Virus record (IMG/VR): IMGVR_UViG_3300003310_000099
Location: 42,295 to 106,294 of that record
DNA: 64,000 bases
Source of the DNA: a virus
Lineage: Duplodnaviria; Heunggongvirae; Uroviricota; Caudoviricetes
Strand: one strand, 5' to 3'
In this document: positions 6,076-26,951 of the stretch, piece after piece
Position numbering within the stretch: position 1 is the first letter of the stretch
Layout of the letters: the number at the start of each line of letters is the position of its first letter
Position numbers and translations under genes: made by a program
Notes under the pieces: model-generated
Database searches by the model: none
The model's input: only the letters and a program-made list of their open reading frames with translations
What the model was told of the DNA's origin: nothing

Positions 6076-6076
6076 C

Positions 6077-6874: not shown

Positions 6875-6883
6875 GCCTAGCCC

Positions 6884-6956: not shown

Positions 6957-7028
6957 TGTGGGGGCACTGTTAGTCACGGAACAGTCGAAAGGCCAGGGCC
7001 GTGCCAGGGTTAAAATCCTGACGAACAC

Positions 7029-7103
7029 ATGTTCGTATTGTGGAGGATTAGATGCTGGCATCTAAACTAGCCTCTGAAGCTAGCTCTCACTGGTTCGATT
7101 CCA
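7029..7103 (+). tRNA. tRNA-Gln (CTG)
   Basis: Acceptor tgtggag/ctccaca perfect, D-stem ttag/ctaa, anticodon arm ctagc-ctCTGaa-gctag, T-arm actggTTCGATTccagt. Confidence 0.65.
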
Positions 7104-7164
7104 GTCTCCACAGCTTATATTGCATAGCTCAAAGTTATATGGTATATTTGAACCTGGAGGTTCT

Positions 7165-7518: not shown

Positions 7519-7576
7519 TGGCTTCGCACACAACCCTGTCACGGTTGTAGAGCGGGTTCGATTCCCGTCGAGACTG
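7504..7576 (+). tRNA. tRNA-Asp (GTC)
   Basis: Acceptor agtctcg/cgagact perfect, anticodon arm caacc-ctGTCac-ggttg, T-arm gcgggTTCGATTcccgt. Overlaps the last 15 nt of the HNH ORF. Confidence 0.65.
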
Positions 7577-7581
7577 CTTTT

Positions 7582-7654
7582 GGTTCCGTAGTGTAATGGT
7601 GTAGCACGGCACCCTGTCAAGGTGTAAGAGCGAGTTCAATTCTCGTCGGGACCG
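7582..7654 (+). tRNA. tRNA-Asp (GTC), tandem second copy
   Basis: Acceptor ggttccg/cgggacc, anticodon arm gcacc-ctGTCaa-ggtgt, T-arm gcgagTTCAATTctcgt. Confidence 0.6.
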
Positions 7655-7663
7655 CTTAGTTTT

Positions 7664-7735
7664 GGCTCTATGGTGAAATGGATATCATCGGATGCTTCTA
7701 ACATCTGGGTCCAGGTTCGATTCCTGGTGGGGCTG
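7664..7735 (+). tRNA. tRNA-Arg (TCT)
   Basis: Acceptor ggctcta/tggggct (three G-U), anticodon arm ggatg-ctTCTaa-catct, T-arm ccaggTTCGATTcctgg. Confidence 0.55.
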
Positions 7736-7769
7736 CTAACAATACAGATTATTAAGACTATATATCTGT

Positions 7770-8147
7770 ATGCCAATGTATCCTTGCATTTGCACTCCTT
7801 ATGCTCCAGGGACTCCTGTAGATTGCAGTATTCCTGGTGTTGGTGATGCAGGTGGAATATTAGAATTACAATTATTAAATGTCCAAATGGGCATGATGGG
7901 TGTTTACGGAGGTTGCGGCCTTACTTTCTACACTTATTCAATTGCTTATAATGTGACTTTTGGTCCATCAGGGGCTTTTCAAATTCAACAATTTAATAAG
8001 CATTTAGGCGAATGGCAGATGAACATGTTCAGTGGAGTATTGTACCAGACGACTGGTGCATTAAATTCCTATGGTCCTTTTTTACCACTTGACCAGATTC
8101 CAATATTTTGGAATAATGTAGTTCTGCCTCCTACGAATGCGAGGTGA
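7770..8147 (+). CDS. hypothetical protein (125 aa)
   Basis: ORF. Gly-rich. Confidence 0.45.
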   Translation: MPMYPCICTPYAPGTPVDCSIPGVGDAGGILELQLLNVQMGMMGVYGGCGLTFYTYSIAYNVTFGPSGAFQIQQFNKHLGEWQMNMFSGVLYQTTGALNSYGPFLPLDQIPIFWNNVVLPPTNAR

Positions 8148-8150
8148 TTT

Positions 8151-8342
8151 ATGGCAAAAAAGAAGGAAGTAAAGGAAAAATTCAAGTTCGTAAAGATTAG
8201 TGAATTGCATAGTGTTTACGAAGTAGTAGAGATTCCACCTGGCGCAACTCACGTTGAATCAGAGACTGATTACAGTGGCTGTTATTACGAGAGTGATATG
8301 CCAAGTGTGAAGGTCACTTTCTACAGGAAAGAAAAGGTATGA
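8151..8342 (+). CDS. hypothetical protein (63 aa)
   Basis: ORF with AAGGAA-like RBS. Confidence 0.4.
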   Translation: MAKKKEVKEKFKFVKISELHSVYEVVEIPPGATHVESETDYSGCYYESDMPSVKVTFYRKEKV

Positions 8343-8512
8343 AAATTGCTGCTATTGTCGAATTAAACGCTCAAGAACTCAAGTATCTTCTTCACGCTCT
8401 TACTAAACTTGATGCACACTACAATGTAGGGTCCAGGGATTTTAATCGTGAAGAGATGCATGAGAAGCTACAGACGAAGCTTGAAAAAGCAGCTTCGTCT
8501 GGTTTAAAATAG
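8339..8512 (+). CDS. hypothetical protein (58 aa)
   Basis: ATG overlaps the upstream stop. The 3' end contains a 9-bp perfect hairpin gacgaagct…agcttcgtc. Below the track cut-off. Confidence 0.3.
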   Translation: MKIAAIVELNAQELKYLLHALTKLDAHYNVGSRDFNREEMHEKLQTKLEKAASSGLK

Positions 8513-8583
8513 CCCTACTGTTGGTGGGTACAACGGGAAGCCTCCAAAACTTCTGCTTGCGGGTTCGATTCCTGCTAGGGCTG
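8511..8583 (+). tRNA. tRNA-Trp (CCA)
   Basis: Acceptor agcccta/tagggct, D-stem gttg/caac, anticodon arm gaagc-ctCCAaa-acttc (31–39 mismatch), T-arm gcgggTTCGATTcctgc. Confidence 0.55.
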
Positions 8584-8590
8584 CTTTTAT

Positions 8591-8661
8591 AGGTGCGTAG
8601 TGTAATGGTAGCATATCAGTCTCCAAAACTGCTGGTGGGCGTTCGACTCGCTCCGCACCTG
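8591..8661 (+). tRNA. tRNA, anticodon read as CCA (Trp), second copy
   Basis: Acceptor aggtgcg/cgcacct perfect, anticodon loop ctCCAaa with a weak 4-bp stem, T-arm gggcgTTCGACTcgctc. Confidence 0.45.
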
Positions 8662-8670
8662 CTTATTTAT

Positions 8671-8743
8671 TCCTCAATAGCTCAATAGGTAGAGCGCAAA
8701 GCTGTTAACTTTGATGTTCTAGGTTCGAGTCCTAGTTGAGGAG
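8671..8743 (+). tRNA. tRNA-Asn (GTT), second copy
   Basis: Acceptor tcctcaa/ttgagga perfect, anticodon arm caaag-ctGTTaa-ctttg, T-arm ctaggTTCGAGTcctag. Confidence 0.65.
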
Positions 8744-8749
8744 CTTTTT

Positions 8750-8974
8750 ATGCCTGACGACAACATTATTGACATGCGGGATTTTACTCCTGAAGACCAT
8801 GAACGAGTCAAAGAGAACTTGTTGAAAAGTTCTTATCTTTGTCCCAAATGCAAATCTTTACATTTGACAAGTGAGGATGTGGCTGGTAGAGTCTGCTGTT
8901 CATCTCCTGGTAAGTTTTATTGCGAAGGCATCTTATACAAAGTCAAAGATTTGGATGAAATTTATGAAAATTGA
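8750..8974 (+). CDS. hypothetical zinc-ribbon protein (74 aa)
   Basis: CPKC…CC motifs. Confidence 0.4.
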   Translation: MPDDNIIDMRDFTPEDHERVKENLLKSSYLCPKCKSLHLTSEDVAGRVCCSSPGKFYCEGILYKVKDLDEIYEN

Positions 8975-9134
8975 AATAGTTTCTGCGGGTCAAGGCAAAG
9001 GTCATCCAAAAAAAAGATGTTCTTGGTGTGACAAGAAGCTTAAAAAGGATGAAGGTATCGCTACCTGTACTCACACAGAGTACGTCACACTTTGCGAAAA
9101 GTGTTATAGAAAAGCTGGCAATTCAGTTAGGTAA
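8955..9134 (+). CDS. hypothetical Cys-rich protein (~59 aa)
   Basis: Internal ATG of track ORF 8871..9134. CSWC…CEKC motifs. Confidence 0.35.
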   Translation: MKFMKIEIVSAGQGKGHPKKRCSWCDKKLKKDEGIATCTHTEYVTLCEKCYRKAGNSVR

Positions 9135-9336
9135 TTGGCTTTGCACTTCCAGGGAACTCTGGACTTATATTGCCTAAAGGCTGTGGTCGCTTAATCTTAT
9201 ATTGAGCAACTTGGGTGTCTTTAACAGGCATCATACGATTAGGATTGATTGGCACTTGTTTTGGGTTGGGTCCAACAGGTGTGGTCATTTGTTGTGGGCC
9301 AGGGTCTAATCCTTCGAGCCATTGCTTGAAATTCAT
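9127..9336 (-). CDS. hypothetical Pro-rich protein (69 aa)
   Basis: Minus-strand ORF in an otherwise plus-strand region. Low confidence. Confidence 0.3.
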   Translation of the reverse strand: MNFKQWLEGLDPGPQQMTTPVGPNPKQVPINPNRMMPVKDTQVAQYKIKRPQPLGNISPEFPGSAKPIT

Positions 9337-9353
9337 GCATTATATAGGTTTCT

Positions 9354-9596
9354 ATGATTACTATTATTCGTTGTTCTCAATGTAAAAAAGAGCTTTCGAT
9401 TGCTTGTGAAGGGTTTGATGGTAAGTCACTATTCATAAGCCTTGATATTCAAAGGCATTACGACATGTGTAAGGAATGCCACCACATCAAGGATGTAAAA
9501 TATACTCAATGTTTTTGTTCAGTCCAGTGTTTGAAGAATTGGATTGCGAGCGACCTTGACAAATATGTTGAAGATAAAGTAATGTGGGGCCAATAA
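9354..9596 (+). CDS. hypothetical Cys-rich protein (80 aa)
   Basis: CSQCKK…CKECHH zinc-finger-like motifs. Confidence 0.45.
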   Translation: MITIIRCSQCKKELSIACEGFDGKSLFISLDIQRHYDMCKECHHIKDVKYTQCFCSVQCLKNWIASDLDKYVEDKVMWGQ

Positions 9597-9862
9597 TGGA
9601 TGAATTGTACTTTTGTTTACGTTTAACGGAAAATGAGCATTACATTGCTTCATGGGACTTTCAAAAAAAGTGTGAAGAGTTAGGGCTGACTTTCGTTTAT
9701 TACAGGAAGTTGAAGGAAGGTCATGTGCCGCTGTATCGTGAGGTCAAGGTGAAGGGTGATAGGTTGCTAATTAATCAGTTTAAGAAATTCATGAAAGACA
9801 AGTTTTATGATTGGCAGGTTGAGAGGAATCCACACAAGGTTGACAGATTAACGCCACCGTAG
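9584..9862 (+). CDS. hypothetical protein (92 aa)
   Basis: Overlaps the upstream ORF by 13 nt. Confidence 0.45.
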   Translation: MGPIMDELYFCLRLTENEHYIASWDFQKKCEELGLTFVYYRKLKEGHVPLYREVKVKGDRLLINQFKKFMKDKFYDWQVERNPHKVDRLTPP

Positions 9863-9923
9863 TATAATGGTAGTACACAACTCTCGTAAAGTTGGAGTTT
9901 GGGTTCGATTCCCAGCGGTGGCT
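9853..9923 (+). tRNA. tRNA-Thr (CGT)
   Basis: Acceptor gccaccg/cggtggc perfect, anticodon arm caact-ctCGTaa-agttg, T-arm ttgggTTCGATTcccag. Confidence 0.65.
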
Positions 9924-9939
9924 CTCACAGGAGACTTTC

Positions 9940-11223
9940 ATGTTCGACTTCCTTAAGAATAAGACCATTTACCACAATAAGTACAAGACTAATTCAAAAG
10001 CAGTGATTATCTCCTGCTATTTTAATCCTCAGAAGTCACCTTATAGACTCAAGGCATTTAATGTTTGGTATGAGTCTATCAAGCATCTGAATCATCGAAT
10101 TGTTGAATGTGTGATTGGCGAAGCAGAGCCACAGTTGCCAGAGAATGATTATATCCAAAGAATTTATACGCCTAACCTTCTTTGGCATAAAGAATCCTTG
10201 CTAAATAACATCGTTGAAAGCTTACCCGAAGAATACAGGTATGTATTTTGGGTTGATGCGGACGTGCTGTTCACTAATAACAATTGGTTGATTGACAGTG
10301 TGGAAGTATTGCAAACTGCTAACATTGTGCAGCCTTTTGAATATTGCGTCCATATGGAAAAGGATGAATTAACTCCTTCCATTAATGTTGAGGCTCATAA
10401 GGCACAAGTGCAAGACGGAACTTATCTTAAAAACCGTAGGGTTTGGCGAAGTTTCTGTGCCAATTATGGCAAGCTTTCCAAGAAGGATAGTGAAACTTAC
10501 CACCTGCACGGTCATGTTGGGTTTGCTTGGGGTGCAAGGCGTGAAATTTTGGATCGTGTACCTTTGTATGATAAAGCTTTAATTGGTGGTGCGGACCATA
10601 TTATTGCACATGCTGCGGTTGGTGAAGTCAAGCATAAGTGCATTATGAATGCTTTCGCAGACAATATCGAAGAGATTGTCGATTGGTCCAGGGAGTTTTA
10701 CTTGGCGGTGCAAGGTAAAGTGGGTTATGCTCCTGGCGACCTGTACCACATTTGGCATGGTGACATTGACAAGAGAGAGTATTTGAAGCGGATTAAGGAT
10801 TTTACGCCAGAGACGAAAAACATTAACATGAAGGACAAGAATGGTCTTTATGTCACGCATAAGGAAGACCATAAGTATATCAAGAATTACTTCAGGAAGC
10901 GTGAAGTTAGTGAATCTGGAACTTACTATGAGGATGATGGATTCTTGGAGTCGATGGCTCTAGGGTACATGACAGATTCGACTATGATGGGTACATTGCT
11001 TGGCGGAAATCTGCCAGGTGCAATGATTGGTGATATGCTGAATAATGCGGATGAAGTGGATGAAGCACCAGCGGTTACGCCTTACAATGAAGTGCCAGCA
11101 GTGCCGCCTCCACCGCCGATGCCTCCAATACCAGTGCCTATGCCGATTCAAATTCCAGAAACGGTGCAGGAAGCAGAGTTATTGCCGATGCCGCGAGAAG
11201 TAGAACCAGACAACTTCTCATGA
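9940..11223 (+). CDS. putative glycosyltransferase (DxD motif) with Pro-rich C-terminal tail
   Basis: 427 aa from the ATG after AGGAG; the track start lies inside the tRNA. YVFWVDADVLF resembles a GT-A DxD motif. C-terminus PPPPPMPPIPVPMPIQIP. Confidence 0.45.
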   Translation: MFDFLKNKTIYHNKYKTNSKAVIISCYFNPQKSPYRLKAFNVWYESIKHLNHRIVECVIGEAEPQLPENDYIQRIYTPNLLWHKESLLNNIVESLPEEYRYVFWVDADVLFTNNNWLIDSVEVLQTANIVQPFEYCVHMEKDELTPSINVEAHKAQVQDGTYLKNRRVWRSFCANYGKLSKKDSETYHLHGHVGFAWGARREILDRVPLYDKALIGGADHIIAHAAVGEVKHKCIMNAFADNIEEIVDWSREFYLAVQGKVGYAPGDLYHIWHGDIDKREYLKRIKDFTPETKNINMKDKNGLYVTHKEDHKYIKNYFRKREVSESGTYYEDDGFLESMALGYMTDSTMMGTLLGGNLPGAMIGDMLNNADEVDEAPAVTPYNEVPAVPPPPPMPPIPVPMPIQIPETVQEAELLPMPREVEPDNFS

Positions 11224-11247
11224 GATACCTTAGCTGTACCTAGTGGT
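11224..11247 (+). promoter_or_regulatory. conserved motif copy 5 (GATACCTTAGCTGTACCTAGTGG)
   Basis: Immediately after the stop of the glycosyltransferase gene. Followed by hairpin gtgttctgaaacac. Confidence 0.4.
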
Positions 11248-11280
11248 GTGTTCTGAAACACAAAACAAAGGGGGGCTTCA

Positions 11281-11571
11281 ATGCGGTACTCACTGGCTTT
11301 AGTTTGTTTGCTAATTGTTTCGCCTTGCTTTGCTGACAACTTTTTTTCTGTTCTGAAGAAGGACCAGAAAGTTGGGTTGCAAGAAACACCGAATGGCTAT
11401 CACATCAAGGTTTTCAAGAATTTTGGTGAGGACACAGCACCTTACAAGGTGATTGAAATTGGTGATAATTATATTGTGATTGAAGATGCAATCGGCGTGA
11501 ATGAGATTCGGATTCCGATTTACTCTATTAAGTCGATTACAACTGTGAAGTTTCCTCAAAAGGCGAAGTGA
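11281..11571 (+). CDS. secreted protein with N-terminal signal peptide (96 aa)
   Basis: MRYSLALVCLLIVSPCFA hydrophobic N-terminus after an AAGGGGGG RBS. Confidence 0.5.
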   Translation: MRYSLALVCLLIVSPCFADNFFSVLKKDQKVGLQETPNGYHIKVFKNFGEDTAPYKVIEIGDNYIVIEDAIGVNEIRIPIYSIKSITTVKFPQKAK

Positions 11572-11960
11572 TGTGGGACAGCGAAGGAAGGTTAGAGTAT
11601 GGGCCTGGATTGAGGGCTGTAGTTTGGGTTGAGCAAAACATTTCAGATTTATACAGAAAGTTGATTCCTAAGTATTATTACGCTCAACCCCAACTATACC
11701 CAGCACACATCACAGTTGTCAGGTTGAGACTTGAAACTGCTAAAAACATGGAAGTTTGGAACAAATATAATGGAGAGTTGATTCCATTTAGCTATGATAG
11801 TTCAATTCGTTTTGATGGAACTTATTTTTACCTGAATGTCCAGAGCGAGAGAATCGGGGACATTCGTGAAGAGTTAGGATTGCCAAGGTTTCGTTTTGGA
11901 GATTTAGGTGCGGACAAACGGTGTTACCATGTGACAATTGCAAATGTCAAAAATACTTAA
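11568..11960 (+). CDS. 2H phosphoesterase superfamily protein (LigT / Acb1-like fold)
   Basis: 130 aa with two H-Φ-T-Φ motifs (AHITVV, YHVTIA) about 73 residues apart. This is the hallmark of 2'-5' RNA ligase / cyclic phosphodiesterase enzymes. Confidence 0.6.
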   Translation: MMWDSEGRLEYGPGLRAVVWVEQNISDLYRKLIPKYYYAQPQLYPAHITVVRLRLETAKNMEVWNKYNGELIPFSYDSSIRFDGTYFYLNVQSERIGDIREELGLPRFRFGDLGADKRCYHVTIANVKNT

Positions 11961-12126
11961 TTGGGCTTTTTCTTTATTCAAGAAGAAAAGAGAGCTTATA
12001 CATAATGTATATCCTTCATATGAATTGCCCTGTGACTGGTGTTATCGAGTAAGGAGAACAACGATAAACGAAGTGAAGGAACGGATGGTAAGAATTTGTT
12101 CGGAGTGTAAAAATGAGAGACGATAA
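11938..12126 (+). CDS. hypothetical zinc-ribbon protein (62 aa)
   Basis: CDWC…CSEC motifs. Confidence 0.35.
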   Translation: MQMSKILNWAFSLFKKKRELIHNVYPSYELPCDWCYRVRRTTINEVKERMVRICSECKNERR

Positions 12127-12274
12127 AGCGAGTATCGAACAAGCTGATGGCTATTCTGGTGGTAGTTGGCATCGTTTTCTCAAGAAGAGAAAGTTGAGAA
12201 AAGAACGACGCCGTGCTAAAAAGAATCCTGAATGCCAATCAGCTTATCGAAGATATAAAGGTTATGAGTTATAA
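12113..12274 (+). CDS. small basic protein (54 aa)
   Basis: K/R-rich ORF. Below the track cut-off. Low confidence. Confidence 0.25.
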   Translation: MRDDKASIEQADGYSGGSWHRFLKKRKLRKERRRAKKNPECQSAYRRYKGYEL

Positions 12275-12322
12275 ATTCTACGAATTTATGGATTTTTCAT
12301 AGTAGCCCTACTACCATAAGAT

Positions 12323-12808
12323 ATGGTTTTATGTAGCAAGTGCAAAAAAGATAAATCTGCTTCGGAATTTAATTTCAATAGTTCCAAAAATCGGTTGGAA
12401 TATCACTGTAAAGAGTGTCATAGTGAATATTTGAAAGAACATTATAAGAAAAATAAAGATTATTATAAGTCCAAAGCCAGCAAAAGAAATAAGTTGGTTA
12501 AACAAGAAAATAAAGTTAGGATTTTTGAGTATTTGCAAAATCATGCTTGTGTTGATTGTGGAGAAAAAGAGCCTATATTTTTAGATTTTGACCATGTAAG
12601 GGGTAAGAAACGATGTAGTCTTTCTAAGCTTGTTAGGGGAGGCTATGCGTGGGAAATAATTCAACAAGAGATAGACAAGTGCGAAATTCGCTGTGTGAAA
12701 TGCCATAGAGTAAAAACATACAAGCAGTTTGGTTGGTATGGTTGGTGGGAAGATATGGCCCGTGGGTGTGATGGATTAGCACATCACTCTACGAAAGTGA
12801 AAGAATAG
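12323..12808 (+). CDS. HNH homing endonuclease (zinc-finger type)
   Basis: 161 aa. CSKC…CKEC, LDFDHV, CVKCH motifs. Its last ~17 codons are encoded by the tRNA-Arg gene at 12757..12829. Confidence 0.75.
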   Translation: MVLCSKCKKDKSASEFNFNSSKNRLEYHCKECHSEYLKEHYKKNKDYYKSKASKRNKLVKQENKVRIFEYLQNHACVDCGEKEPIFLDFDHVRGKKRCSLSKLVRGGYAWEIIQQEIDKCEIRCVKCHRVKTYKQFGWYGWWEDMARGCDGLAHHSTKVKE

Positions 12809-12829
12809 GTTCAAATCCTATACGGGCTA
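12757..12829 (+). tRNA. tRNA-Arg (ACG)
   Basis: Acceptor ggcccgt/acgggct, anticodon arm tcact-ctACGaa-agtga, T-arm ataggTTCAAATcctat. Overlaps the 3' end of the HNH ORF. Confidence 0.6.
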
Positions 12830-12836
12830 ATATGAA

Positions 12837-12908
12837 GCGCCTATAGCATAATGGCAATGCGCGACGTTGCCAACGTCGAAACTGTGGGTTCGAGTCCCAC
12901 TAGGCGCT
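12837..12908 (+). tRNA. tRNA-Gly (GCC)
   Basis: Acceptor gcgccta/taggcgc perfect, anticodon arm cgacg-ttGCCaa-cgtcg, T-arm gtgggTTCGAGTcccac. Confidence 0.65.
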
Positions 12909-12912
12909 CTTT

Positions 12913-12984
12913 GCGGGTGTAGCATAATGGCGATGCACTTGCTTCCCAAGCAAGATATTGTGGGTTCGAGTCCCATCACCCGCT
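12913..12984 (+). tRNA. tRNA-Gly (CCC)
   Basis: Acceptor gcgggtg/cacccgc perfect, anticodon arm cttgc-ttCCCaa-gcaag, T-arm gtgggTTCGAGTcccat. Confidence 0.65.
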
Positions 12985-13012
12985 TTGTCCTTTTAATATA
13001 GGGAGTATTAAA

Positions 13013-13195
13013 ATGAAGTGTGCAACATGTTGTTCTGTATGTAAGAAGAAGTGTGCCGAGCTTCATGAATGTGATTGTGCAGAATACTCCGATCTTTGCC
13101 CAGAATGTTGGCAGAAAGTTCCAACCCGTCACCGAGAAGAAGTTTGTATAGTGGATTGGTTGGATTACGATAAGGATATGGTTGATTTAAATTAA
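13013..13195 (+). CDS. hypothetical Cys-rich protein (60 aa)
   Basis: 10 Cys in 60 aa (CATCCSVCKKKC…CDC…CPEC). Confidence 0.4.
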   Translation: MKCATCCSVCKKKCAELHECDCAEYSDLCPECWQKVPTRHREEVCIVDWLDYDKDMVDLN

Positions 13196-13200
13196 CCAGT

Positions 13201-13271
13201 GCGGCTATGATGTAGTGGTAGCCTGTCTGCTTGCCATGCAGGACGTGCGGGTTCGATTCCCGCTAGCCGCT
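13201..13271 (+). tRNA. tRNA (anticodon uncertain, possibly GCC)
   Basis: Acceptor gcggcta/tagccgc perfect, T-arm gcgggTTCGATTcccgc. Anticodon arm tctgc-ttGCCat-gcagg; D-arm unclear. Confidence 0.5.
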
Positions 13272-13273
13272 TT

Positions 13274-13480
13274 ATGAGAAAAGAAAGTCAAGAAGAATAT
13301 TTTTCCCGTATGGATGAGGTCTTTTTCCTTCAATATCATTTAGGCATGAGATATGACAAGATTAAGGCAATGTCAGACCATGACCGTAAACTGACTATTG
13401 AATTGTTTTGTAAAGAAAACAATAAAAAAAAGTCTACTTTGCTTTTTCCAAGAAAAGGATTGCCAGATGACCCGTCCTAA
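13274..13480 (+). CDS. hypothetical protein (68 aa)
   Basis: ATG 3 nt after the tRNA. Confidence 0.4.
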   Translation: MRKESQEEYFSRMDEVFFLQYHLGMRYDKIKAMSDHDRKLTIELFCKENNKKKSTLLFPRKGLPDDPS

Positions 13481-13622
13481 ACTCGAAAAGCCTGTTAAGT
13501 GCTTGGGTTGTGGTGGTCAGATGAGGTTAAGGAAAAGACCTAGAGGATACATCCTAGTGTGCAAGAATGCTCCTAAATGTAGGAAGGTTGCAGCTTATGA
13601 AGTATGTGAACCTAATAGTTAA
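13467..13622 (+). CDS. small zinc-ribbon protein (51 aa)
   Basis: CLGCGGQM…CKNAPKC resembles topoisomerase-type zinc ribbons. Internal ATG of track ORF 13398..13622. Confidence 0.35.
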   Translation: MTRPKLEKPVKCLGCGGQMRLRKRPRGYILVCKNAPKCRKVAAYEVCEPNS

Positions 13623-13776
13623 TGTTGGCAGTCTTGACGAAGATGAATGTGAAGCGATTGAAGCTGAAATCAGTGAATTGCTTGAGCGTCATAACATGAA
13701 GCTGCATTCAACTTCATCAACGCCAAAGCAAGGTTACAGAGAAGAGGAATTGCAGTTTTACCCGAACGATATGTAA
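13597..13776 (+). CDS. hypothetical acidic protein (59 aa)
   Basis: Internal ATG of track ORF 13567..13776. Confidence 0.35.
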   Translation: MKYVNLIVNVGSLDEDECEAIEAEISELLERHNMKLHSTSSTPKQGYREEELQFYPNDM

Positions 13777-13777
13777 T

Positions 13778-13850
13778 GGCCCGTTCGACTTCTAGCTGAG
13801 GTCGGTAGCCTCTCAAGCTACATAGATGGGGGCAGAACCCATACGGGTCA
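13778..13850 (+). ncRNA. tRNA-like gene, anticodon loop ctCTCaa, aberrant T-loop GGCAGAA
   Basis: Acceptor ggcccgt/acgggtc, D-stem gact/ggtc, perfect anticodon arm gtagc-ctCTCaa-gctac. The T-arm atggg-GGCAGAA-cccat lacks T54/Ψ55/C56. Confidence 0.35.
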
Positions 13851-13851
13851 C

Positions 13852-14106
13852 TTGGAGATTGATATGGAACTTAAACTTTTCAAGTTGAAGAAGTATATAT
13901 CTCCTGAATGGGGAAATACTTACGACATTGACACTTATTACTACATTTCAAATGATGTAATAAAGGTTCTTGAAGAGATAGATGAGGTCCACGGCTGGGA
14001 GTTGAGTGGTTCTGATGGCAAGTGGACTTACGATCATTACTATGATATGGATCGTGCAGAGTTGAAGGTGGTTTTGGAAGAGGTTAAGTGTAATATTGTG
14101 ATATAA
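13852..14106 (+). CDS. hypothetical protein (84 aa)
   Basis: ATG 2 nt after the tRNA-like gene. Confidence 0.45.
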   Translation: MEIDMELKLFKLKKYISPEWGNTYDIDTYYYISNDVIKVLEEIDEVHGWELSGSDGKWTYDHYYDMDRAELKVVLEEVKCNIVI

Positions 14107-14223
14107 TGAGTAGGGTCGAAATTGGCCGTCTGAGAGCGTTTGCACGACGTACTCCTCGGACCTTTCCATAACTGATCTATATGATTTATTTGGGTGCAAC
14201 TGGATAAATCTCTACTCATTTAT

Positions 14224-14295
14224 GGCCCATTCGTCTAGCGGCTAGGATAACTGGCTTTCAATCAGTTGACAGGAGTTCGATTCTCCTATGGGCTA
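14224..14295 (+). tRNA. tRNA, anticodon read as TTC (Glu), third copy
   Basis: Acceptor ggcccat/atgggct, anticodon arm actgg-ctTTCaa-tcagt, T-arm aggagTTCGATTctcct. Confidence 0.55.
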
Positions 14296-14491
14296 CATTG
14301 AAGAGTGGTTTAAATGTTGGTGTACATGTAAAGCCGTGAATTGGGTATATGCTGGCGATCCTATGGACCAGACTATACCCGATGTTCACGGCTTTATTTG
14401 TTTTAAATGTGGTGCAGAGAATGAATTTGATAATCTGGACCTATTTGAAGACGATGAAAGGTATTTTAAGGAAGGTTTAGAGCATCCATAG
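14288..14491 (+). CDS. hypothetical Cys-rich protein (67 aa; start uncertain)
   Basis: The track start overlaps the tRNA 3' end; the alternative internal Met is at 14363. CWCTCK…CFKCGAE motifs. Confidence 0.35.
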   Translation: MGYIEEWFKCWCTCKAVNWVYAGDPMDQTIPDVHGFICFKCGAENEFDNLDLFEDDERYFKEGLEHP

Positions 14492-14503
14492 CTATATTAG
14501 TGT

Positions 14504-14689
14504 ATGGAAAAAGTAGATTTTGTTATAATAGACACTGACGGAATTCATGAAACTCTGGCATGTCCCAAATGCGGTAATGTCTTCGATATTGACGCTCATA
14601 CTGAGTTAAATCTAATATTTGACAAGACTTATATGGGTCTGCTTGCAAAATGCACAGACTGCGGAGTTCTCCAAAAGGGTGATGAATGA
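14504..14689 (+). CDS. hypothetical zinc-ribbon protein (61 aa)
   Basis: CPKCGN…CTDCG. Confidence 0.4.
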   Translation: MEKVDFVIIDTDGIHETLACPKCGNVFDIDAHTELNLIFDKTYMGLLAKCTDCGVLQKGDE

Positions 14690-14738
14690 TTTATAAAGGT
14701 AAAGTTTGGAAATACCAACTTTTCAAAGAGGTTAGTAT

Positions 14739-14912
14739 ATGAATCAGGACTATATGCGTGGTAAACTCCTAGATTACTATTCCACTTTAAACGTGGAAGG
14801 TAAGATTACGGAGTCAGAAATGGAAGATGAAATGGATAAAGTTTCATTTCATATGACGGAGCAACAGATCGAAAGAAAGTATAAGCAATTGAAAAAGCTT
14901 AAAGCTATATAA
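14739..14912 (+). CDS. hypothetical protein (58 aa)
   Basis: Below the track cut-off. Acidic. Confidence 0.3.
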   Translation: MNQDYMRGKLLDYYSTLNVEGKITESEMEDEMDKVSFHMTEQQIERKYKQLKKLKAI

Positions 14913-14916
14913 TTGC

Positions 14917-15318
14917 ATGATTTCATTTAACGTATGGCTAGAAGCAAAACAAGGCTTATATCAGCAGTTATTGGCACTTAGACCGTTGATAGCTCAAGCT
15001 GCACAGAAAATTTATAATGAATGGGATCAGGAAGATGAATGCGACGTAGGTGGTATTTGTGACGAAATAGCGAATGCCACGTCTGGTATAATTGTAAATC
15101 GCATCAGGAATATAAATGTTACGGATGGCGGGCATGATGGTGACGATCATGCTTGGACGATTGTGTATAATAACTCTGAGTCTTATGGGGTAGACATACC
15201 GCCTCATGTCTATGAAACGGGTGGTGGTTATTGCTGGAAGAAGATACCAGGGGTTATTATACAGCCTAACCACGTCGAAGTTTGGGATTTAGGAATTCAT
15301 CCAAGGGAATTCCAGTAA
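14917..15318 (+). CDS. hypothetical protein (133 aa)
   Basis: ORF. Confidence 0.45.
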   Translation: MISFNVWLEAKQGLYQQLLALRPLIAQAAQKIYNEWDQEDECDVGGICDEIANATSGIIVNRIRNINVTDGGHDGDDHAWTIVYNNSESYGVDIPPHVYETGGGYCWKKIPGVIIQPNHVEVWDLGIHPREFQ

Positions 15319-15323
15319 GACAC

Positions 15324-15351
15324 TTTACAAAACGTAGTTTTGTGTTATACT
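15324..15351 (+). promoter_or_regulatory. sigma70-like promoter P1 (-35 TTTACA, 16-nt spacer, extended -10 TGTGTTATACT)
   Basis: Matches the TGn-TATAAT architecture. The same 14-mer TGTGKTATACTGAG recurs at 19691. The predicted start site coincides with the ATG of the ligase gene, giving a leaderless mRNA. Confidence 0.5.
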
Positions 15352-15357
15352 GAGCGT

Positions 15358-16458
15358 ATGAACAAACTACCTCCACTTTACTCCCGTCGTTCCGATGGGA
15401 AAATTCAAATTTGGGAAAAAGAGATTTCGGGCAATAAGTACCGAACTCACTCTGGCATTAAAGACGGCGAAATCGTCGTTTCTGAATGGACAGAATGTGT
15501 AGCAAAGAACGTCGGCAAGAAAAATCATATCACCGCCGAACAACAAGCGACCATCGAAGCCAAGGCCGATTGGCAAAAGAAGAAGGACAAAGGTTATAAG
15601 GAAGATATCAACGACGTTGATAACTATACTTTTTTTGAGCCTATGCTGGCTAAGGTCTGGCAAGATTACAAAGACGAAGCTGTTTTTCCTGCCTATGTCC
15701 AACCAAAGTTGGACGGAATGCGTCTTATTGCCAACAAAGAAGGTCTATGGACCAGGAATGGAAAGGAATATAAGTCCATTCCTCACATCTACGAAGCATT
15801 AAGACCTTTATTTAAATTTAATCCGAAGTATATCTTCGATGGGGAAGTCTACGCAGACAAATTTGCTAATGACTTCAATAAGATTTGTTCCTTAGCTAAA
15901 AAAACTAAGCCAACAGCGGAAGATATTGCGGAATCGGCAGTCAGTATCGAATACCATATTTATGATTTTCCTTATTGGGAAGATGTTTTTAGTAAGCGAC
16001 ATGCTGAGTTGCTGAAAGTGTCAAAGCATTTCAAGCATGATAAACTAAAATTGGTTGATACGCATGAAGTGAGTTCTCATAAAGAAATTGACGGTCATTA
16101 TGAGAACTTTGTCGAGCTTGGCTATGAAGGCTTGATGGTTCGTATTGACGCTCATTATGAAAATAAGCGAACCAAGTCCCTGTTGAAATACAAGGAATTC
16201 AAGGATGATGAGTATGAGATTTTGGATGTAGTGGAGGGTATTGGCAATAGGAGTGGTGGTGCTGGTGCGCTTGTTTGTAAGAACAAGGATGGCAGCACTT
16301 TTCATTCCAATATCAAGGGCAATCGTGAATTTTGCAAGGCAATGCTTATCAATAAGAACGACTATATTGGCAAAATGGCCACTATTCAGTTCTTTAATTT
16401 GACGGTTGATGGCGTGCCACGTTTCCCCTATTTTTTGAGAGTCCGCGACGATGGATGA
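15358..16458 (+). CDS. ATP-dependent DNA ligase
   Basis: Motif I KLDGMR, motif III FDGEVY, motif IV EGLMVR, motif V LLKYK, followed by an OB-like C-terminus. The ORF-track TTG start at 15340 is replaced by the ATG at 15358. Confidence 0.8.
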   Translation: MNKLPPLYSRRSDGKIQIWEKEISGNKYRTHSGIKDGEIVVSEWTECVAKNVGKKNHITAEQQATIEAKADWQKKKDKGYKEDINDVDNYTFFEPMLAKVWQDYKDEAVFPAYVQPKLDGMRLIANKEGLWTRNGKEYKSIPHIYEALRPLFKFNPKYIFDGEVYADKFANDFNKICSLAKKTKPTAEDIAESAVSIEYHIYDFPYWEDVFSKRHAELLKVSKHFKHDKLKLVDTHEVSSHKEIDGHYENFVELGYEGLMVRIDAHYENKRTKSLLKYKEFKDDEYEILDVVEGIGNRSGGAGALVCKNKDGSTFHSNIKGNREFCKAMLINKNDYIGKMATIQFFNLTVDGVPRFPYFLRVRDDG

Positions 16459-16810
16459 ATTATATAAGTATTTTGAAGATGTTAAGTTTTCAGCCATGCT
16501 TAATGTTTGCAGTGGTTTTAACTGTGTAAAGCATGGGTTGGATATTGATATAAATGTTAATAAACTGATTTGGGAAATGGATGAATGGGAATTTCAGTTA
16601 GAACTCTATGACAGAATCCATGAATTATTGTCTGTTAGTGGTCTTGAAGAGTTTGAACATCCATATGATATGGCAATAACCGCCTATCTTTTTGCATTAA
16701 GTAAGCGTAATATGCCATTGGCGGTACTGTGTTCCAGGTTTGTCAAGGACGTTCCAAGGCTTTTCTGGGCCTATAAAATGGCTAAGGAGTTGAGGGTTCG
16801 GGATGAATGA
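16451..16810 (+). CDS. hypothetical protein (119 aa)
   Basis: ORF overlapping the ligase stop by 8 nt. Confidence 0.45.
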   Translation: MDELYKYFEDVKFSAMLNVCSGFNCVKHGLDIDINVNKLIWEMDEWEFQLELYDRIHELLSVSGLEEFEHPYDMAITAYLFALSKRNMPLAVLCSRFVKDVPRLFWAYKMAKELRVRDE

Positions 16811-17477
16811 TTTACCCCCTTGGCGAAGATGGTTTGAAGTCTTTATTCGTTTCCTTATATTCTATAGCATTTTCAGTTTCTATGCAGAAGTAGATTTCGC
16901 CAAAGAAGATACAAGTAGTGGGTTCTGGCTCTGGAGTGAGCGAGTTGTAGCTATCATATTCACTATTGAATACATTTTAAGATGGAGTTGGTCCCCGCAC
17001 GGCTGGAAATGGCCTTTCACTTTCTATGCTGTCGTAGATTTACTCGCAATTCTACCTTTCTACATAGGATTCTTTGTCCCATCCCACCACTTGGGCGTCA
17101 TACGGTCTTTGCGTGTTCTAAGACTGTTGAAGCTAACTAGGTACAGTTTAGCTTTGGACAGGTTTTTAGACAGTTTCAGAAGAGTTAAGGATGAATTAAC
17201 GATCATCATGGTGTTTTTGATGATTGTAGTCTTTTTAGGGGCTACTCTTCTGTATGAGTTTGAGCATCCTGTTCAGCCTGAAAAAATCTCCTGTTTAGCA
17301 GACGCAACTTGGCTATGTTTCATCACCATAGCGACTATTGGTTATGGTGACATATACCCAATGACTTGGCCTGGAAGGATTATAGTGATGATTGTGTGTG
17401 TATTGGGGCTTGGTATTTTTGGTTCATTCGTCAGTCTTTTAGGCAGTTCCGTAATATGCAGGGATAAGAAACCTTAA
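16803..17477 (+). CDS. voltage-gated potassium channel (6-TM, Kv-like)
   Basis: 224 aa. S4-like VIRSLRVLRLLKLTRYS has Arg/Lys every third residue. The pore has the canonical K+ selectivity filter TIATIGYGD. There are hydrophobic segments before and after. Confidence 0.8.
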   Translation: MNDLPPWRRWFEVFIRFLIFYSIFSFYAEVDFAKEDTSSGFWLWSERVVAIIFTIEYILRWSWSPHGWKWPFTFYAVVDLLAILPFYIGFFVPSHHLGVIRSLRVLRLLKLTRYSLALDRFLDSFRRVKDELTIIMVFLMIVVFLGATLLYEFEHPVQPEKISCLADATWLCFITIATIGYGDIYPMTWPGRIIVMIVCVLGLGIFGSFVSLLGSSVICRDKKP

Positions 17478-18025
17478 ATTCCAATTTTTTTCATTTGTTC
17501 ATTATCCCTATCGTTTGGTTTTAGATAAGCACCCATGAAGTAATCTGCCAGAGGAAACACTACGTTGTAGTTTTTACCTGGGTAGGTGTGGTGCATCCAA
17601 TGATAGCGAGCCAGGAATTTATAGATTGCAGTATTTGAGAACCATGAATATTTTGGTCGGTGCATTTCGCTGTGAACTATATTCCAGATTAAGTGGTGTA
17701 CTATTACTGTGAAGAAGAAAACAATTGCGAAGGTTGAGGATATAAACCAGAGTGGTATGCAGACAATAAATGCTAAGAACGCGCCGAGTTTTACGTCTAG
17801 TTCTATATCTATGTCCCTCCCGTATGGATCGGGTTCATAGTTAAAATCTTCGTAATATTTTCTATGGTGTAGAAAACTGTGCTGCTCATAGGTTTTATTT
17901 AAAAAAGGGATGCAGCGGTATATAAAACTAGGTAGTCTGCGTTTGTGCATGAGCCAACGGTGTACAAAGTATTCTATGAAAGACATGATGACGATGCTTA
18001 AAACTAGACTAGCAAATATTAGCAT
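17474..18025 (-). CDS. fatty-acid hydroxylase / sterol-desaturase family membrane di-iron enzyme
   Basis: 183 aa. Histidine boxes HRWLMH, HHRKY, HSEMH and HWMHH lie in hydrophobic segments. Confidence 0.65.
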   Translation of the reverse strand: MLIFASLVLSIVIMSFIEYFVHRWLMHKRRLPSFIYRCIPFLNKTYEQHSFLHHRKYYEDFNYEPDPYGRDIDIELDVKLGAFLAFIVCIPLWFISSTFAIVFFFTVIVHHLIWNIVHSEMHRPKYSWFSNTAIYKFLARYHWMHHTYPGKNYNVVFPLADYFMGAYLKPNDRDNEQMKKIGI

Positions 18026-18367
18026 GGAGACTCCTTCTCATCCGTATATACGCTTGACAAAGTGAGTTCCTGTGCTATATTATCAATGTGACAGCCAAAA
18101 AAGGAGGAGTTATGCTCTAGGTAGAAAATTGCGATTGTGTATTCCATTTCAACAAGGCGAGTCTTGCCGACCCAAACGTTCCAGCTTGGGTGTTAAAGGC
18201 AAAGGGTGAAACATATTATGTTACCCATGTAACATCGAATGCTCCTTGGTCTACCAAGGAAACGCCTGACAATTCGCATACGAAGGGTAGTTTGAAATTT
18301 AAGCGTGTGAATGTCATTATTCACGAAGATAATTCGGCTGAAATATTTGAAGTTTAGGAGGCATAAA

Positions 18368-19687
18368 ATGCCTAATAAAGTGAAGATTACTGGCGGTCCT
18401 AGTTTTTCTTGGTATGTCGTAACTTTCGTTTTATTCATCTGGGATTTTTACTACGGTCTAGTTTGGTTAATCACCAATCTAGTAACCGTAGTTTCCATTT
18501 ATATTTATCTTCGCTACAAGCATGTCCCAATTATTAAGAGTTTACTTGATACCGACTGGTACAAGTTTACGATGGGGCAGGTAGTTTTCCACAATTTCCC
18601 TTACACAAATGTCGAATACGCCTTTATTAACCGTGGGAAGACTCAGTTCCCAGAAGGTTTCGCTGATGCACTGCGTAAAGAACTTAAAGCTCTGAGTAAG
18701 CTTAAGTTAAGGTACAAAGAAATCCAGTGGCTTGCTGAGAACTGGTGTATGAGTGGGGATTATGTGGAATTTCTGACTGATTTTAGGTTTAATCCTGAAC
18801 AGGTTAAGATTTCGCAGAGCAGTGGCGACCTGGATATTAAGATTAGCGGACCTTGGAAGGAAACAATTCTTTGGGAAGTGCCTTTGATGGCAATTATCAG
18901 TGAATTGTATTTCAAAATGACTGAAAGAACTTGGGATGAAGATGCCTTTGTCAGGAAGACTGAAAATAAAGGTAACAAAATGCAGAATGCTGGAGTTGCT
19001 TGGAGCGATTTCGGCACCCGACGTAGGTTTTCTTTCGCTGTGCAGGATAAACTTAATTCGGTTATGCGGCACTTTCATGAAGGATTCAAAGGCACAAGCA
19101 ATCCTTACTTTGCCATGAAGTATAATTTAACCCCTATTGGCACTTATGCTCATGAAGCTGTGATGGCTATGCAGATGTTTTATGGTGCCAAGGATTCTAA
19201 CCGAAAATGGATGGAGTATTGGTGCAAGGAATACGATGGCTACATGCGAATCGCTCTTACTGATACTCTTACTACCGATGTTTTCTTGAGGGATTTTGAC
19301 TATAAAACAGCAAATGAGTTTGCTGGAGTTCGTCAGGACAGTGGTGATCCGTTTGAATTTGGTGAAAAACTGATTCAGCATTATGAGAAATTGGGCATTG
19401 ACCCAAAAACTAAGAAAATCGTGTTTAGTGATAGTTTGGATGCTGATAAGGCAGTGGCTTTGCACGAAAGATTTTCTGACCGTATTCAGTGTGTGATGGG
19501 TATTGGCACACATTTGACTAACGATTGTGGGCATAAACCACTGAATATGGTTATTAAGCTGACTGCTGTTGAAGGTATGCCAGTAGTGAAGCTGTCGGAC
19601 GACAAAGGCAAGCACACTGGTATTCCTGAAGTAATTGATAAGGTCAAGGAAGAATTGGGTATCAACAATAAGCTTGTCATTGTGTGA
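18368..19687 (+). CDS. pncB: nicotinate phosphoribosyltransferase (PncB-like)
   Basis: LLDTDWYKFTMGQVV and SDFGTRRR motifs are typical of the NAPRTase family. AGGAGG RBS upstream of ATG 18368. An N-terminal ~45-aa hydrophobic extension is present. Confidence 0.75.
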   Translation: MPNKVKITGGPSFSWYVVTFVLFIWDFYYGLVWLITNLVTVVSIYIYLRYKHVPIIKSLLDTDWYKFTMGQVVFHNFPYTNVEYAFINRGKTQFPEGFADALRKELKALSKLKLRYKEIQWLAENWCMSGDYVEFLTDFRFNPEQVKISQSSGDLDIKISGPWKETILWEVPLMAIISELYFKMTERTWDEDAFVRKTENKGNKMQNAGVAWSDFGTRRRFSFAVQDKLNSVMRHFHEGFKGTSNPYFAMKYNLTPIGTYAHEAVMAMQMFYGAKDSNRKWMEYWCKEYDGYMRIALTDTLTTDVFLRDFDYKTANEFAGVRQDSGDPFEFGEKLIQHYEKLGIDPKTKKIVFSDSLDADKAVALHERFSDRIQCVMGIGTHLTNDCGHKPLNMVIKLTAVEGMPVVKLSDDKGKHTGIPEVIDKVKEELGINNKLVIV

Positions 19688-25941: not shown

Positions 25942-26772
25942 ATGTGTGCAGATATTTTCTATACAATTGGGGCAACTCATCAAGTCTGCCAGGATTTTGC
26001 CCTGACTGATGGCAAATCCTATGTGATCGTTTCTGATGGTTGTTCATCTGCAAAAGACTCTGATTGGGGTTCAAGACTCCTTGCTAAAGCGTTAGAAGAG
26101 TCTTTCAGGGAGAAATCCAGACTGAAATTGGATGAGATTCCTGTGTCGTTAATTAACAATGCTGTTAAACTTGCAGAGTGCTATACTGCTTTGTTAAAGA
26201 TCGACAAGGACTGTCTGGCAGCTACTTTAATGGCAGCTTACAAGACAGATAAAGGCATTCATGCTTTCATTAGTGGGGATGGCAGTATTGTAGCTAAATT
26301 TGGCGATAGCCTGCAAATTATTGACCATAGCTATGATAGTGGCGCACCATACTATCTTTATTACACCCTGGATGACGGCTTAAAGTATGGCTATAGCCAA
26401 GCTTTTGGCAATGGTGAACTTCACATTGAAAAGAGCATTGTTGAAGTGAATCGTGGTCGTAGAACTATAAGGGAAACACTTTCTGGTCCTAGTATGGTTA
26501 GAACGACTTCTCATTATTTCTTTCCCAAAGAAGAATTTACTTGTGTTGGTATAATCACTGATGGCTTGAAGTCATTCGTCAAACAGGTGAAAAAACACAC
26601 TAGTATTACAAACGAATCAGTGCCTTTTGAGAGTTTTGTTGGCGATTTGTTCAGTTTTAAGACGCATGAAGGTCAGTACGTTCATCGTCGTTGTCAGCGT
26701 GCTTTCAGGGAATTTCACAATCAAGGCATCAAGCATAATGACGATTTTGCTATGGGAGTGATAGGACATTGA
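25942..26772 (+). CDS. PP2C-like (PPM family) protein phosphatase candidate
   Basis: 276 aa. VSDGCSSAKDSDWGS, ISGDGSIVA and C-terminal NDDFAMGVIG resemble the PPM motifs DGxGG, GDSR and DN-t-vvv. Assigned by motif only. Confidence 0.45.
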   Translation: MCADIFYTIGATHQVCQDFALTDGKSYVIVSDGCSSAKDSDWGSRLLAKALEESFREKSRLKLDEIPVSLINNAVKLAECYTALLKIDKDCLAATLMAAYKTDKGIHAFISGDGSIVAKFGDSLQIIDHSYDSGAPYYLYYTLDDGLKYGYSQAFGNGELHIEKSIVEVNRGRRTIRETLSGPSMVRTTSHYFFPKEEFTCVGIITDGLKSFVKQVKKHTSITNESVPFESFVGDLFSFKTHEGQYVHRRCQRAFREFHNQGIKHNDDFAMGVIGH

Positions 26773-26951
26773 AAGAAATAAATGAATTAAAAAACCGCCC
26801 TATGGATATTGTCGCCCTCGAACAACTAAGGGCGATGCATGATTATTATCTTAGCAAGATGGTTGATTATGCCACAATTGACTATATTGGAGAAAAGGAT
26901 ATCCGTCAACTTAGAGAAATCTATGCCAAGAAGGAAGCAGCAAAGCCATGA
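26769..26951 (+). CDS. hypothetical protein (60 aa)
   Basis: Sits between the phosphatase-like and kinase-like genes, overlapping both by 4 nt. Confidence 0.4.
   Translation: MKEINELKNRPMDIVALEQLRAMHDYYLSKMVDYATIDYIGEKDIRQLREIYAKKEAAKP

Follow-up and report, generated by a model that had tools for sequence, protein, structure and literature searches.

A stretch of 64,000 nucleotides from a tailed virus of the class Caudoviricetes (IMG/VR record IMGVR_UViG_3300003310_000099, positions 42,295 to 106,294), referred to as a whole as the window, encodes three proteins with a putative role in the metabolism of lipids or small molecules: a histidine-box (His-box) membrane protein of the FA_hydroxylase superfamily, a Rieske oxygenase and an acyl carrier protein (ACP) (Table 1). 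All three were recognised in an initial annotation made from the sequence alone, and their family assignments were borne out by profile searches, in which each product scored above the curated Pfam cut-off. Each protein clearly belongs to a well-known superfamily, and none is an equivalog of a characterised enzyme. The three are probably auxiliary genes that a tailed huge phage of ~596 kb acquired separately and that evolve independently, and not the components of a single module.

Genomic context of the window

Exact matches to the Rieske protein and to a neighbouring protein place the window at approximately positions 265,308 to 329,307 of the JGI metagenome contig Ga0071082_100015 (596,394 bp), and pieces identical to this contig are also present in a second metagenome sample. 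The contig looks like the genome of a tailed huge phage and is not cyanophage-like. Its phage origin, assumed from the outset, is corroborated by 49 tRNA genes within the window, matches to PHROG families (an ATP-dependent ligase, HNH endonucleases and others), a T4 gp15-type tail-sheath stabiliser with a score exceeding the Pfam cut-off, and syntenic relatives. Long synteny is shared with two contigs, a viral one of 390 kb from IMG/VR (L105) and one of 586 kb from another metagenome (L103), and a DNA search of deposited phage genomes yielded no close relative for the window region. Many of the open reading frames (ORFs) are short and without an assigned family, and nearly all are on the same strand. 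The majority of the tRNA genes (38/49) are located within 14 kb (positions 330 to 14,296), the others being scattered up to position 61,819. A tRNA array this large is typical for huge phages, and could offset a mismatch in codon usage with the host. Almost all of the tRNA genes are on the plus strand and many are duplicates; a tRNA-Ile(tat) gene is located at positions 43,199 to 43,286.

An insert-bearing acyl carrier protein fixed in the phage clade

The 130 amino acid ACP matches the PP-binding family (PF00550; Bitscore: 41.4; cut-off: 20.8), and the attachment motif on which it was first recognised, DLGAESIDFLD, is found at residues 34 to 44 and includes Ser39. The Pfam match covers residues 9 to 63 only, with the remainder of the protein made up of a ~50-residue insert and helix IV. 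The insert (residues ~62 to 112) is located between helix II and helices III/IV, with the peptide FTVSTLVKYIG forming helix IV. In the AlphaFold2 model (pLDDT: 91) the protein is an acidic four-helix bundle (pI: 4.4) onto which complete ACPs superimpose with target-normalised TM-scores of 0.83 to 0.89. The protein misses the cut-offs of all NCBIfam equivalog models, if narrowly in the best case (65.7 against 66), and is not the housekeeping AcpP.

Many bacterial proteins of 127 to 136 amino acids have this same architecture (55–61% amino acid identity), with Phycisphaerae and Gemmataceae prominent among the matches listed. Ser39, the whole of the DLGAESIDFLD motif and several residues of the insert are invariant in 18/18 phage and bacterial sequences. 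In the Gemmataceae the gene forms part of a cluster with the order ApeI-like dehydratase, ketoreductase, ACP, ApeI-like dehydratase, two ketosynthases, hydrolase, GH3, GT2 and acyltransferase, while in Tepidisphaera it is located between two genes for FabA-like dehydratases. The bacterial homologues belong to clusters resembling type-II fatty acid synthase (FAS) or polyketide synthase (PKS) systems, mostly of Planctomycetota, and not to a fab operon. The Gemmataceae cluster (L006–L008, positions 6,570 to 16,393) is itself uncharacterised and aryl-polyene-like; its hydrolase is of the alpha/beta type and its GH3 protein an adenylase.

The position of the ACP gene is the same in L105 (76% amino acid identity) and L103 (52%). 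In the phages the locus consists of a conserved ORF of unassigned family followed by the ACP gene, a 44 amino acid ORF and a DNA methyltransferase gene. Other ACPs in deposited phages and in IMG/VR lack the insert, the sole exception being that of the syntenic relative L105, and the deposited-phage matches cover the canonical core only. The ORF directly upstream of the ACP gene keeps its syntenic position across the three huge-phage contigs, with conservation of the C-terminal ~137 amino acids, and its product, which has no match in Pfam, NCBIfam, PHROGs or the PDB, is a candidate ACP partner. An N-terminal tandem repeat in this ORF (EKDMLKSIVEKIVSP / EKDMLKSILVKILSP) is absent from the L105 and L103 homologues, and the true start may be Met65.

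The invariance of Ser39 and its surrounding motif argues that the phosphopantetheine group is needed, while the conservation of the insert between phage and bacteria suggests that the partner interface is the same as in the bacterial clusters. A lipid role for the ACP is a reasonable inference from this type-II FAS/PKS-like bacterial context. Alternatively, the protein may serve as an acidic adaptor or decoy, which binds host ACP-dependent enzymes or other partners and thereby redirects or blocks host metabolism. Its strong acidity would suit such a role, the conserved upstream ORF could encode a non-enzymatic partner, and the ACP is an orphan: no ORF in the window resembles the bacterial partner enzymes when the window proteins are compared with these, and cognate enzymes were not found among the scanned window genes. 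Orphan ACP genes without an assigned pathway are also carried by other jumbophages (PMC13573597). The apparent need for a prosthetic group and the bacterial-type interface suggested by the shared insert, however, speak against a mere decoy, and we consider this explanation rather improbable.

An apparently mobile gene for a predicted His-box membrane oxygenase

The 183 amino acid His-box protein matches the FA_hydroxylase family over nearly the entire profile (PF04116; Bitscore: 38.6; cut-off: 31; e-value: 1.8e-9; profile positions 2 to 131 of 132). Its histidines are grouped in the boxes HRWLMH (residues 22–27), HSFLHH (49–54), HH (110–111), HSEMH (118–122) and HWMHH (142–146), with the pattern H22-x4-H27, H49-x3-HH54, H110, H118-x3-H122 and H142-x2-HH146. 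Of the four boxes named in the initial annotation, HRWLMH, HSEMH and HWMHH could be retained, while HHRKY is not a box of its own but the tail of HSFLHH. Ten histidines (among H22, H27, H49, H53, H54, H110, H118, H122, H142, H145 and the H146 region) are invariant or nearly so (at least 90%) in 24 homologues. This conservation and that of Ser39 and the ACP insert in 18 homologues exclude a chance origin of the motifs.

The AlphaFold model (pLDDT: 89.4; pTM: 0.84) and the hydropathy profile show ~3 hydrophobic helices (residues 2–21, 78–93 and 97–115), with every His box on one face. The boxes had been described as embedded in transmembrane (TM) segments, a placement that must be revised, as the boxes occupy either amphipathic helices or those helix ends that are close to the membrane, outside the hydrophobic cores. 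With so few hydrophobic helices and all of its boxes on one face, the protein is a stripped-down form of the FA_hydroxylase fold. A Foldseek comparison against the PDB returned four chains of the yeast protein Scs7p (4zr0/4zr1; probability: 1.0; TM-score: 0.55–0.59) as the sole matches with an e-value below 1, and a sequence search of the PDB gave only chance matches to G protein-coupled receptors. NCBIfam contains no model for this family (24 members scanned); a weak match to the model TrhA_N_extend (20 bits against a cut-off of 200) occurs in eight of the 24 members, but its score is too low to carry any meaning.

A word-indexed search yielded a complete list of 24 homologues, and a full profile search of 1.84 billion entries 1,532 cluster representatives at an e-value of at most 1e-3, with 96 at an e-value of at most 1e-30. 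Ninety-nine bacterial loci, encoding proteins with 34–48% amino acid identity to the phage protein, are found in a collection of species genomes; most belong to Obscuribacterales/Melainabacteria, with others in Nitrospirota, Rokubacteria and Methylobacter and a few in Planctomycetota. Among the viral resources, no PHROG family matches the protein, the deposited phage genomes in INPHARED give no match even at an e-value of up to 1, IMG/VR holds only two loci, and the matches in BFVD are weak and limited to 'fatty acid hydroxylases' of giant viruses. In a neighbour-joining tree the viral sequences, namely the window protein, those of a 669-kb and a 587-kb contig, that of a 93-kb IMG/VR contig and those of a few short contigs, group in a single clade that is separate from the bacterial ones. 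Its members share 45–87% amino acid identity and retain all of the histidines. The context of the gene differs in each of three related huge-phage contigs (L003 and L145 included), and the gene therefore behaves as a mobile single-gene cassette.

Within the window the gene runs counter to its neighbours and ends in a 4-nt overlap with the 3′ end of a convergent K+ channel gene. The channel protein is complete, with a TIGYGD selectivity filter and an S4-like segment (RSLRVLRLLKLTR). It was considered as a partner of the His-box protein and rejected, as the two genes are not adjacent in L003 or L145.

In several bacterial lineages the gene is found near genes for enzymes of lipid or envelope metabolism. 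In a Nitrospirales genome (L020) a PlsC-type acyltransferase gene is located 4 bp downstream, in Obscuribacterales the gene is surrounded by those for a UbiA prenyltransferase, an AMP-ligase and a patatin-like lipase, a GT2 gene is found nearby in Nitrospira, and waaA-lpxK is ~4 kb away in another bacterium. In the loci examined there is no universally conserved neighbour, only lineage-specific ones. From the superfamily, the fold and some of these neighbours it is reasonable to assign a lipid role to the protein, which is predicted to hydroxylate or desaturate membrane lipids with the help of O2 and of electrons supplied by the host.

The main alternative is that it hydroxylates the rings of carotenoids or other isoprenoids in the manner of CrtZ, rather than acyl lipids. 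CrtZ itself falls within PF04116, and both the length of ~180 amino acids and the pattern HX4H...HX2-3HH...HX3-4H...HX2HH presumably resemble those of CrtZ. A gene for a UbiA-type prenyltransferase is furthermore located directly upstream in one Obscuribacterales lineage. None of the 24 members, however, matches any NCBIfam model, including any for carotenoid hydroxylases that may be among them, no genes for carotenoid synthesis are found next to the gene in the bacterial loci examined, and the other neighbours encode acyl-lipid enzymes (PlsC-type acyltransferase, patatin, lpxK and waaA). A CrtZ-like function is unlikely.

A variably present Rieske oxygenase

The Rieske protein scores well above the cut-offs for both of its domains, confirming the Rieske centre (PF00355; Bitscore: 58.2; cut-off: 20.3) and the catalytic domain that follows it (Ring_hydroxyl_A, PF00848; Bitscore: 103.2; cut-off: 24.9). 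The peptides CRHRG and CPYHGW are present as proposed, but are separated by 13 residues and not 17, the latter being the number between the two cysteines, with 15 between H77 and C93; the resulting motif, C75-R-H77-x15-C93-P-Y-H96, is the canonical CXH-X15-CXXH. In a sequence search of the PDB the only full-length alignment is with the carnitine monooxygenase CntA (Bitscore: 87; e-value: 8e-24), while aromatic-ring dioxygenases align within the Rieske domain only. Residues C75, H77, C93, H96, H182 and H187 (H182-x4-H187) and D283 align with the metal-ligand positions of CntA, and D178 with the bridging Glu of CntA. The best NCBIfam model is GbcA, at 100 bits far from the equivalog cut-off of 670. 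On sequence the protein can be placed at the level of the branch only, among the alpha-only CntA/GbcA/choline monooxygenase (CMO) enzymes.

Relatives were compared among the best 120 of 7,548 matches. Those of cellular origin with a named source belong to Gemmataceae (~40–44% amino acid identity), 'choline monooxygenase' is the JGI label of many others, and closer relatives (47–54%) come from further large contigs of viral or virus-like character. In a second jumbo-phage lineage, with one contig of 341 kb, the homologue is located two genes downstream of a gene for a patatin-like phospholipase. This block is conserved (L093/L094/L095, positions ~6,750 to 9,040; L101, positions 6,879 to 9,011) and also contains genes for YqeY and a class-III aminotransferase. 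Deposited phages provide only matches of ~26% identity to antA/benA-type genes on bacterial-looking contigs labelled 'Acinetobacter phage MD-2021a', and no paper on Rieske auxiliary genes in phages was found in the literature.

The Rieske protein is identical in two metagenomes. In the syntenic contig L105 the 64 amino acid ORF on its left and the DUF3307 gene on its right are adjacent, with the 969-bp Rieske gene missing. This precise absence indicates that the gene is dispensable, and was recently gained or lost, and that its stop codon overlaps the DUF3307 start merely by coincidence. The DUF3307 protein was likewise rejected as a partner, as its gene is present in L105 without the Rieske gene and absent beside the other viral Rieske genes. 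No reductase or ferredoxin gene (Fer2, FAD- and NAD-binding families) was found among the scanned window genes or beside the viral Rieske relatives.

Linkage of the three genes and alternative interpretations

The His-box and Rieske genes are 19 kb apart, and the Rieske and ACP genes 9 kb, among unrelated small ORFs. The three differ in their nearest relatives and in their behaviour, the ACP gene being fixed in the clade, the His-box gene moving and the Rieske gene variably present. This contig is the only one to carry all three (24 His-box matches, the best 120 of 7,548 Rieske matches and the 120 ACP matches listed). The ACP-bearing contigs of 590 and 586 kb are absent from the complete list of His-box matches, and none of the other huge contigs is among the best 120 Rieske matches. 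The suggestion in the initial annotation that they jointly modify host lipids or small molecules is not supported for the set, which is neither physically linked nor inherited together, as seen in the absence of the Rieske gene from L105 and the differing His-box contexts. Lipid modification by the phage is plausible for two of the three.

A single lipid programme, with the His-box protein, the Rieske oxygenase or both hydroxylating an acyl chain borne by the ACP, could account for three confirmed families on one genome, the lipid-type neighbours of the bacterial His-box and ACP genes, and the patatin-like phospholipase gene near the Rieske homologue in the second jumbo-phage lineage. Such a programme is difficult to reconcile with the spacing of 9 to 19 kb and the opposite strand of the His-box gene, with L105 retaining the ACP without the Rieske gene, or with the His-box gene being elsewhere in relatives and missing from the two other large ACP-bearing contigs. 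The Rieske branch is moreover known for small quaternary-amine substrates and not lipids, and the characterised FA_hydroxylase enzymes act on membrane lipids and not on acyl-ACP. We regard one shared programme as unlikely.

The least tenable explanation, that the genes are functionless passengers, recently acquired by horizontal transfer and now decaying or silent, could draw on the variable Rieske gene, the lack of a promoter-like site for the His-box gene and the lack of partner enzymes nearby in the scanned window genes, but is very improbable given that all three frames are intact and keep every catalytic or attachment residue, that the viral His-box clade has retained all histidines despite its divergence, that the ACP gene has kept its place in relatives with as little as 52% identity, Ser39 and the insert still being invariant, and that an identical Rieske protein occurs in two metagenomes.

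Three separately acquired auxiliary genes thus remain the probable explanation, and several steps can be proposed for their action. The His-box protein would insert into the cytoplasmic membrane of the host, its N-terminus facing outwards, which would position the conserved histidines on the cytoplasmic face, where they may bind two irons. Using O2 and drawing its electrons from a donor in the host, it would hydroxylate (or desaturate) a hydrophobic substrate in the membrane, for which the acyl or isoprenoid chains of envelope lipids are the most likely candidates. The soluble Rieske protein would borrow a host reductase and oxidise a small, possibly quaternary-amine, metabolite. A host phosphopantetheinyl transferase (PPTase) would convert the ACP to its holo form, which may then feed into, or divert, an acyl- or polyene-chain pathway of the host. 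The affinities of two of the genes make Planctomycetota the apparent donors, and possibly the hosts, of this huge-phage clade. A bolder proposal, which is speculative and rather unlikely, is that these phages of ~0.6 Mb, whose hosts may be Planctomycetota, remodel the host envelope lipids in an O2-dependent manner, with a phage-specific lineage of minimal His-box hydroxylases acting directly on membrane lipids and the orphan ACP joining and diverting a specialised FabA/ApeI-type acyl or polyene pathway of the host.

A number of observations weigh against the preferred reading of three separate auxiliary genes with these functions. The substrates of all three proteins are putative, and no gene for a PPTase, dehydratase, ketosynthase, ketoreductase, ferredoxin, flavin reductase or other reductase was found in a profile scan of the window ORFs of ~100 amino acids and above, several near its start (first 10 kb) excepted. 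A scan around the opposite-strand His-box gene gave no sigma-70-like promoter. The bacterial neighbours of this gene are inconsistent, many lineages showing unrelated ones (ABC transporter, Asn synthase, helicase), and those of lipid type come from few lineages, some of which are closely related. The structural match to Scs7p is modest (e-value: ~0.01; TM-score below 0.6), and the tree that separates the viral His-box clade carries no support values. Finally, the GC content of the phage (40%) contrasts with the Planctomycetota affinity of two of the genes.

Three aspects are mildly new: a phage lineage of FA_hydroxylase-type oxygenases, in the resources searched until now seen in giant viruses only; a CntA/CMO-branch Rieske oxygenase in jumbo and huge phages; and an insert-bearing, pathway-type ACP that is stably inherited in a huge-phage clade. 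If the proteins are active, the auxiliary functions of phages would gain an O2-dependent oxidation of membrane lipids, reported so far only in giant eukaryotic viruses, as well as the hijacking of a specialised carrier-protein pathway. Should the envelope-remodelling proposal be true, neither an FA_hydroxylase-type lipid oxygenase nor a pathway-specific ACP would have been shown to act in a phage infection before. The 130 amino acid insert-bearing ACP and the ~180 amino acid His-box family are uncharacterised in bacteria too, and the phage copies flag both for characterisation. The present result constitutes a correct annotation and not the discovery of a new system.

Other features of the window

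Further accessory genes in the window encode nicotinate phosphoribosyltransferase, SAICAR synthase, an NTP transferase, a PP2C-type phosphatase and a kinase-like protein, as well as SPFH and NADAR proteins (Table 1). A strong sigma-70-like promoter (TTGACA-16-TATATT) is located at positions 18,054 to 18,081, near the nicotinate phosphoribosyltransferase gene. The longest ORF for the latter includes an extra hydrophobic N-terminal extension of ~75 amino acids, while a 439 amino acid product is called by JGI. The PP2C-type phosphatase and the 558 amino acid kinase-like protein may form a Ser/Thr signalling pair of the phage. In the related 669-kb contig a NADAR gene is paired with a PARG-like gene, and this pairing, along with the NADAR genes of the window, suggests a counter-defence related to ADP-ribose or NAD. 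The SAICAR synthase and NTP transferase genes are close to the NADAR genes; no recorded protein is identical to the NTP transferase. From ~57,800 to 64,000 the coding switches to the minus strand and the GC skew turns negative; this block of minus-strand genes, among them those for the tail-sheath stabiliser and the polynucleotide-kinase-like protein, may mark where a structural or late module begins or ends.

Table 1. Positions, strands and supporting evidence for the genes discussed in the 64,000-nt window
Feature	Position	Strand	Evidence
K+ channel, 224 aa, six-TM voltage-gated type	16803-17477	+	Ion_trans, 91.6 bits; matches phrog_7872
Predicted His-box (di-iron) membrane oxygenase, FA_hydroxylase superfamily, 183 aa	17474-18025	-	Pfam PF04116, His conservation, AF2 model, Scs7p fold match
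Nicotinate phosphoribosyltransferase (NAD salvage)	18311-19687	+	
PP2C-type phosphatase	25942-26772	+	
558-aa protein with weak protein-kinase match	26948-28624	+	Score under Pfam cut-off
Alpha-only Rieske oxygenase, CntA/GbcA/'choline monooxygenase' branch, 322 aa	37032-38000	+	Pfam Rieske and Ring_hydroxyl_A, CntA alignment
DUF3307 membrane protein	38000-38380	+	phrog_2470 ('moron/AMG')
Unassigned ORF directly upstream of ACP	46470-47078	+	Synteny in three huge-phage contigs
Insert-bearing ACP, 130 aa	47089-47481	+	PF00550, invariant Ser39, AF2 fold, synteny
NADAR-type protein (putative)	53620-54054	+	54% identity to Pfam-annotated NADAR gene in L003
SAICAR synthase	55223-56119		
NTP transferase	56558-57349		
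NADAR-type protein	60468-60959	-	Direct Pfam NADAR match, 176.5 bits
Polynucleotide-kinase-like protein	61325-61708	-	
T4 gp15-like tail-sheath stabiliser	61826-62476	-	Pfam

Comparison with known systems

None of the three gene types is mentioned in the reference paper on huge phages (PMC7162821). The closest characterised counterpart of the His-box protein is the sphingolipid fatty-acid 2-hydroxylase Scs7p/FA2H, with which it shares PF04116, a fold match of ~170 aligned columns and the His-rich boxes on one face of the membrane. Amino acid identity is, however, only 20–22%, and the 183 amino acid phage protein with its ~3 hydrophobic helices is smaller than the hydroxylase domain of Scs7p (~270 amino acids, four TM segments) and lacks the fused cytochrome b5 domain. 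The only viral proteins in BFVD with the His-box fold are those of giant viruses (Nucleocytoviricota, e.g. ChoanoV1, Fadolivirus and CroV), no phage protein matching in fold or sequence in BFVD, PHROGs or INPHARED. The giant-virus fatty acid hydroxylases differ in being longer and encoded by viruses that infect eukaryotes, and their matches to the phage protein are weak (e-value: 0.04–2.5; 16–21% amino acid identity).

The Rieske protein resembles CntA (PDB 6y8j, 6y9c), GbcA and the plant-type choline monooxygenases in its Rieske ligands, the H-x4-H motif, the Asp ligand and the absence of a beta subunit. It differs from CntA in its length (322 amino acids, against 391 for the CntA PDB chain), in the low identity between the two, and in that no reductase gene was found nearby.

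The phage ACP shares with AcpP and the aryl-polyene ACPs ApeE and ApeF the PP-binding domain, the serine at the start of helix II and the acidic four-helix bundle. ApeE/ApeF and AcpP are described as ACPs of ordinary size (PMC12624758), and ACP chains in the PDB are 72 to 101 amino acids long, while the phage protein reaches 130 by means of its ~50-residue insert and is an orphan in the phage. Other phage ACPs (phrog_5934) match it weakly (24 bits) and in the core only, the insert not being shared. The likeness to the aryl-polyene systems is instead apparent in the bacterial homologues, whose clusters include ApeI-like dehydratases, a ketoreductase and paired ketosynthases.

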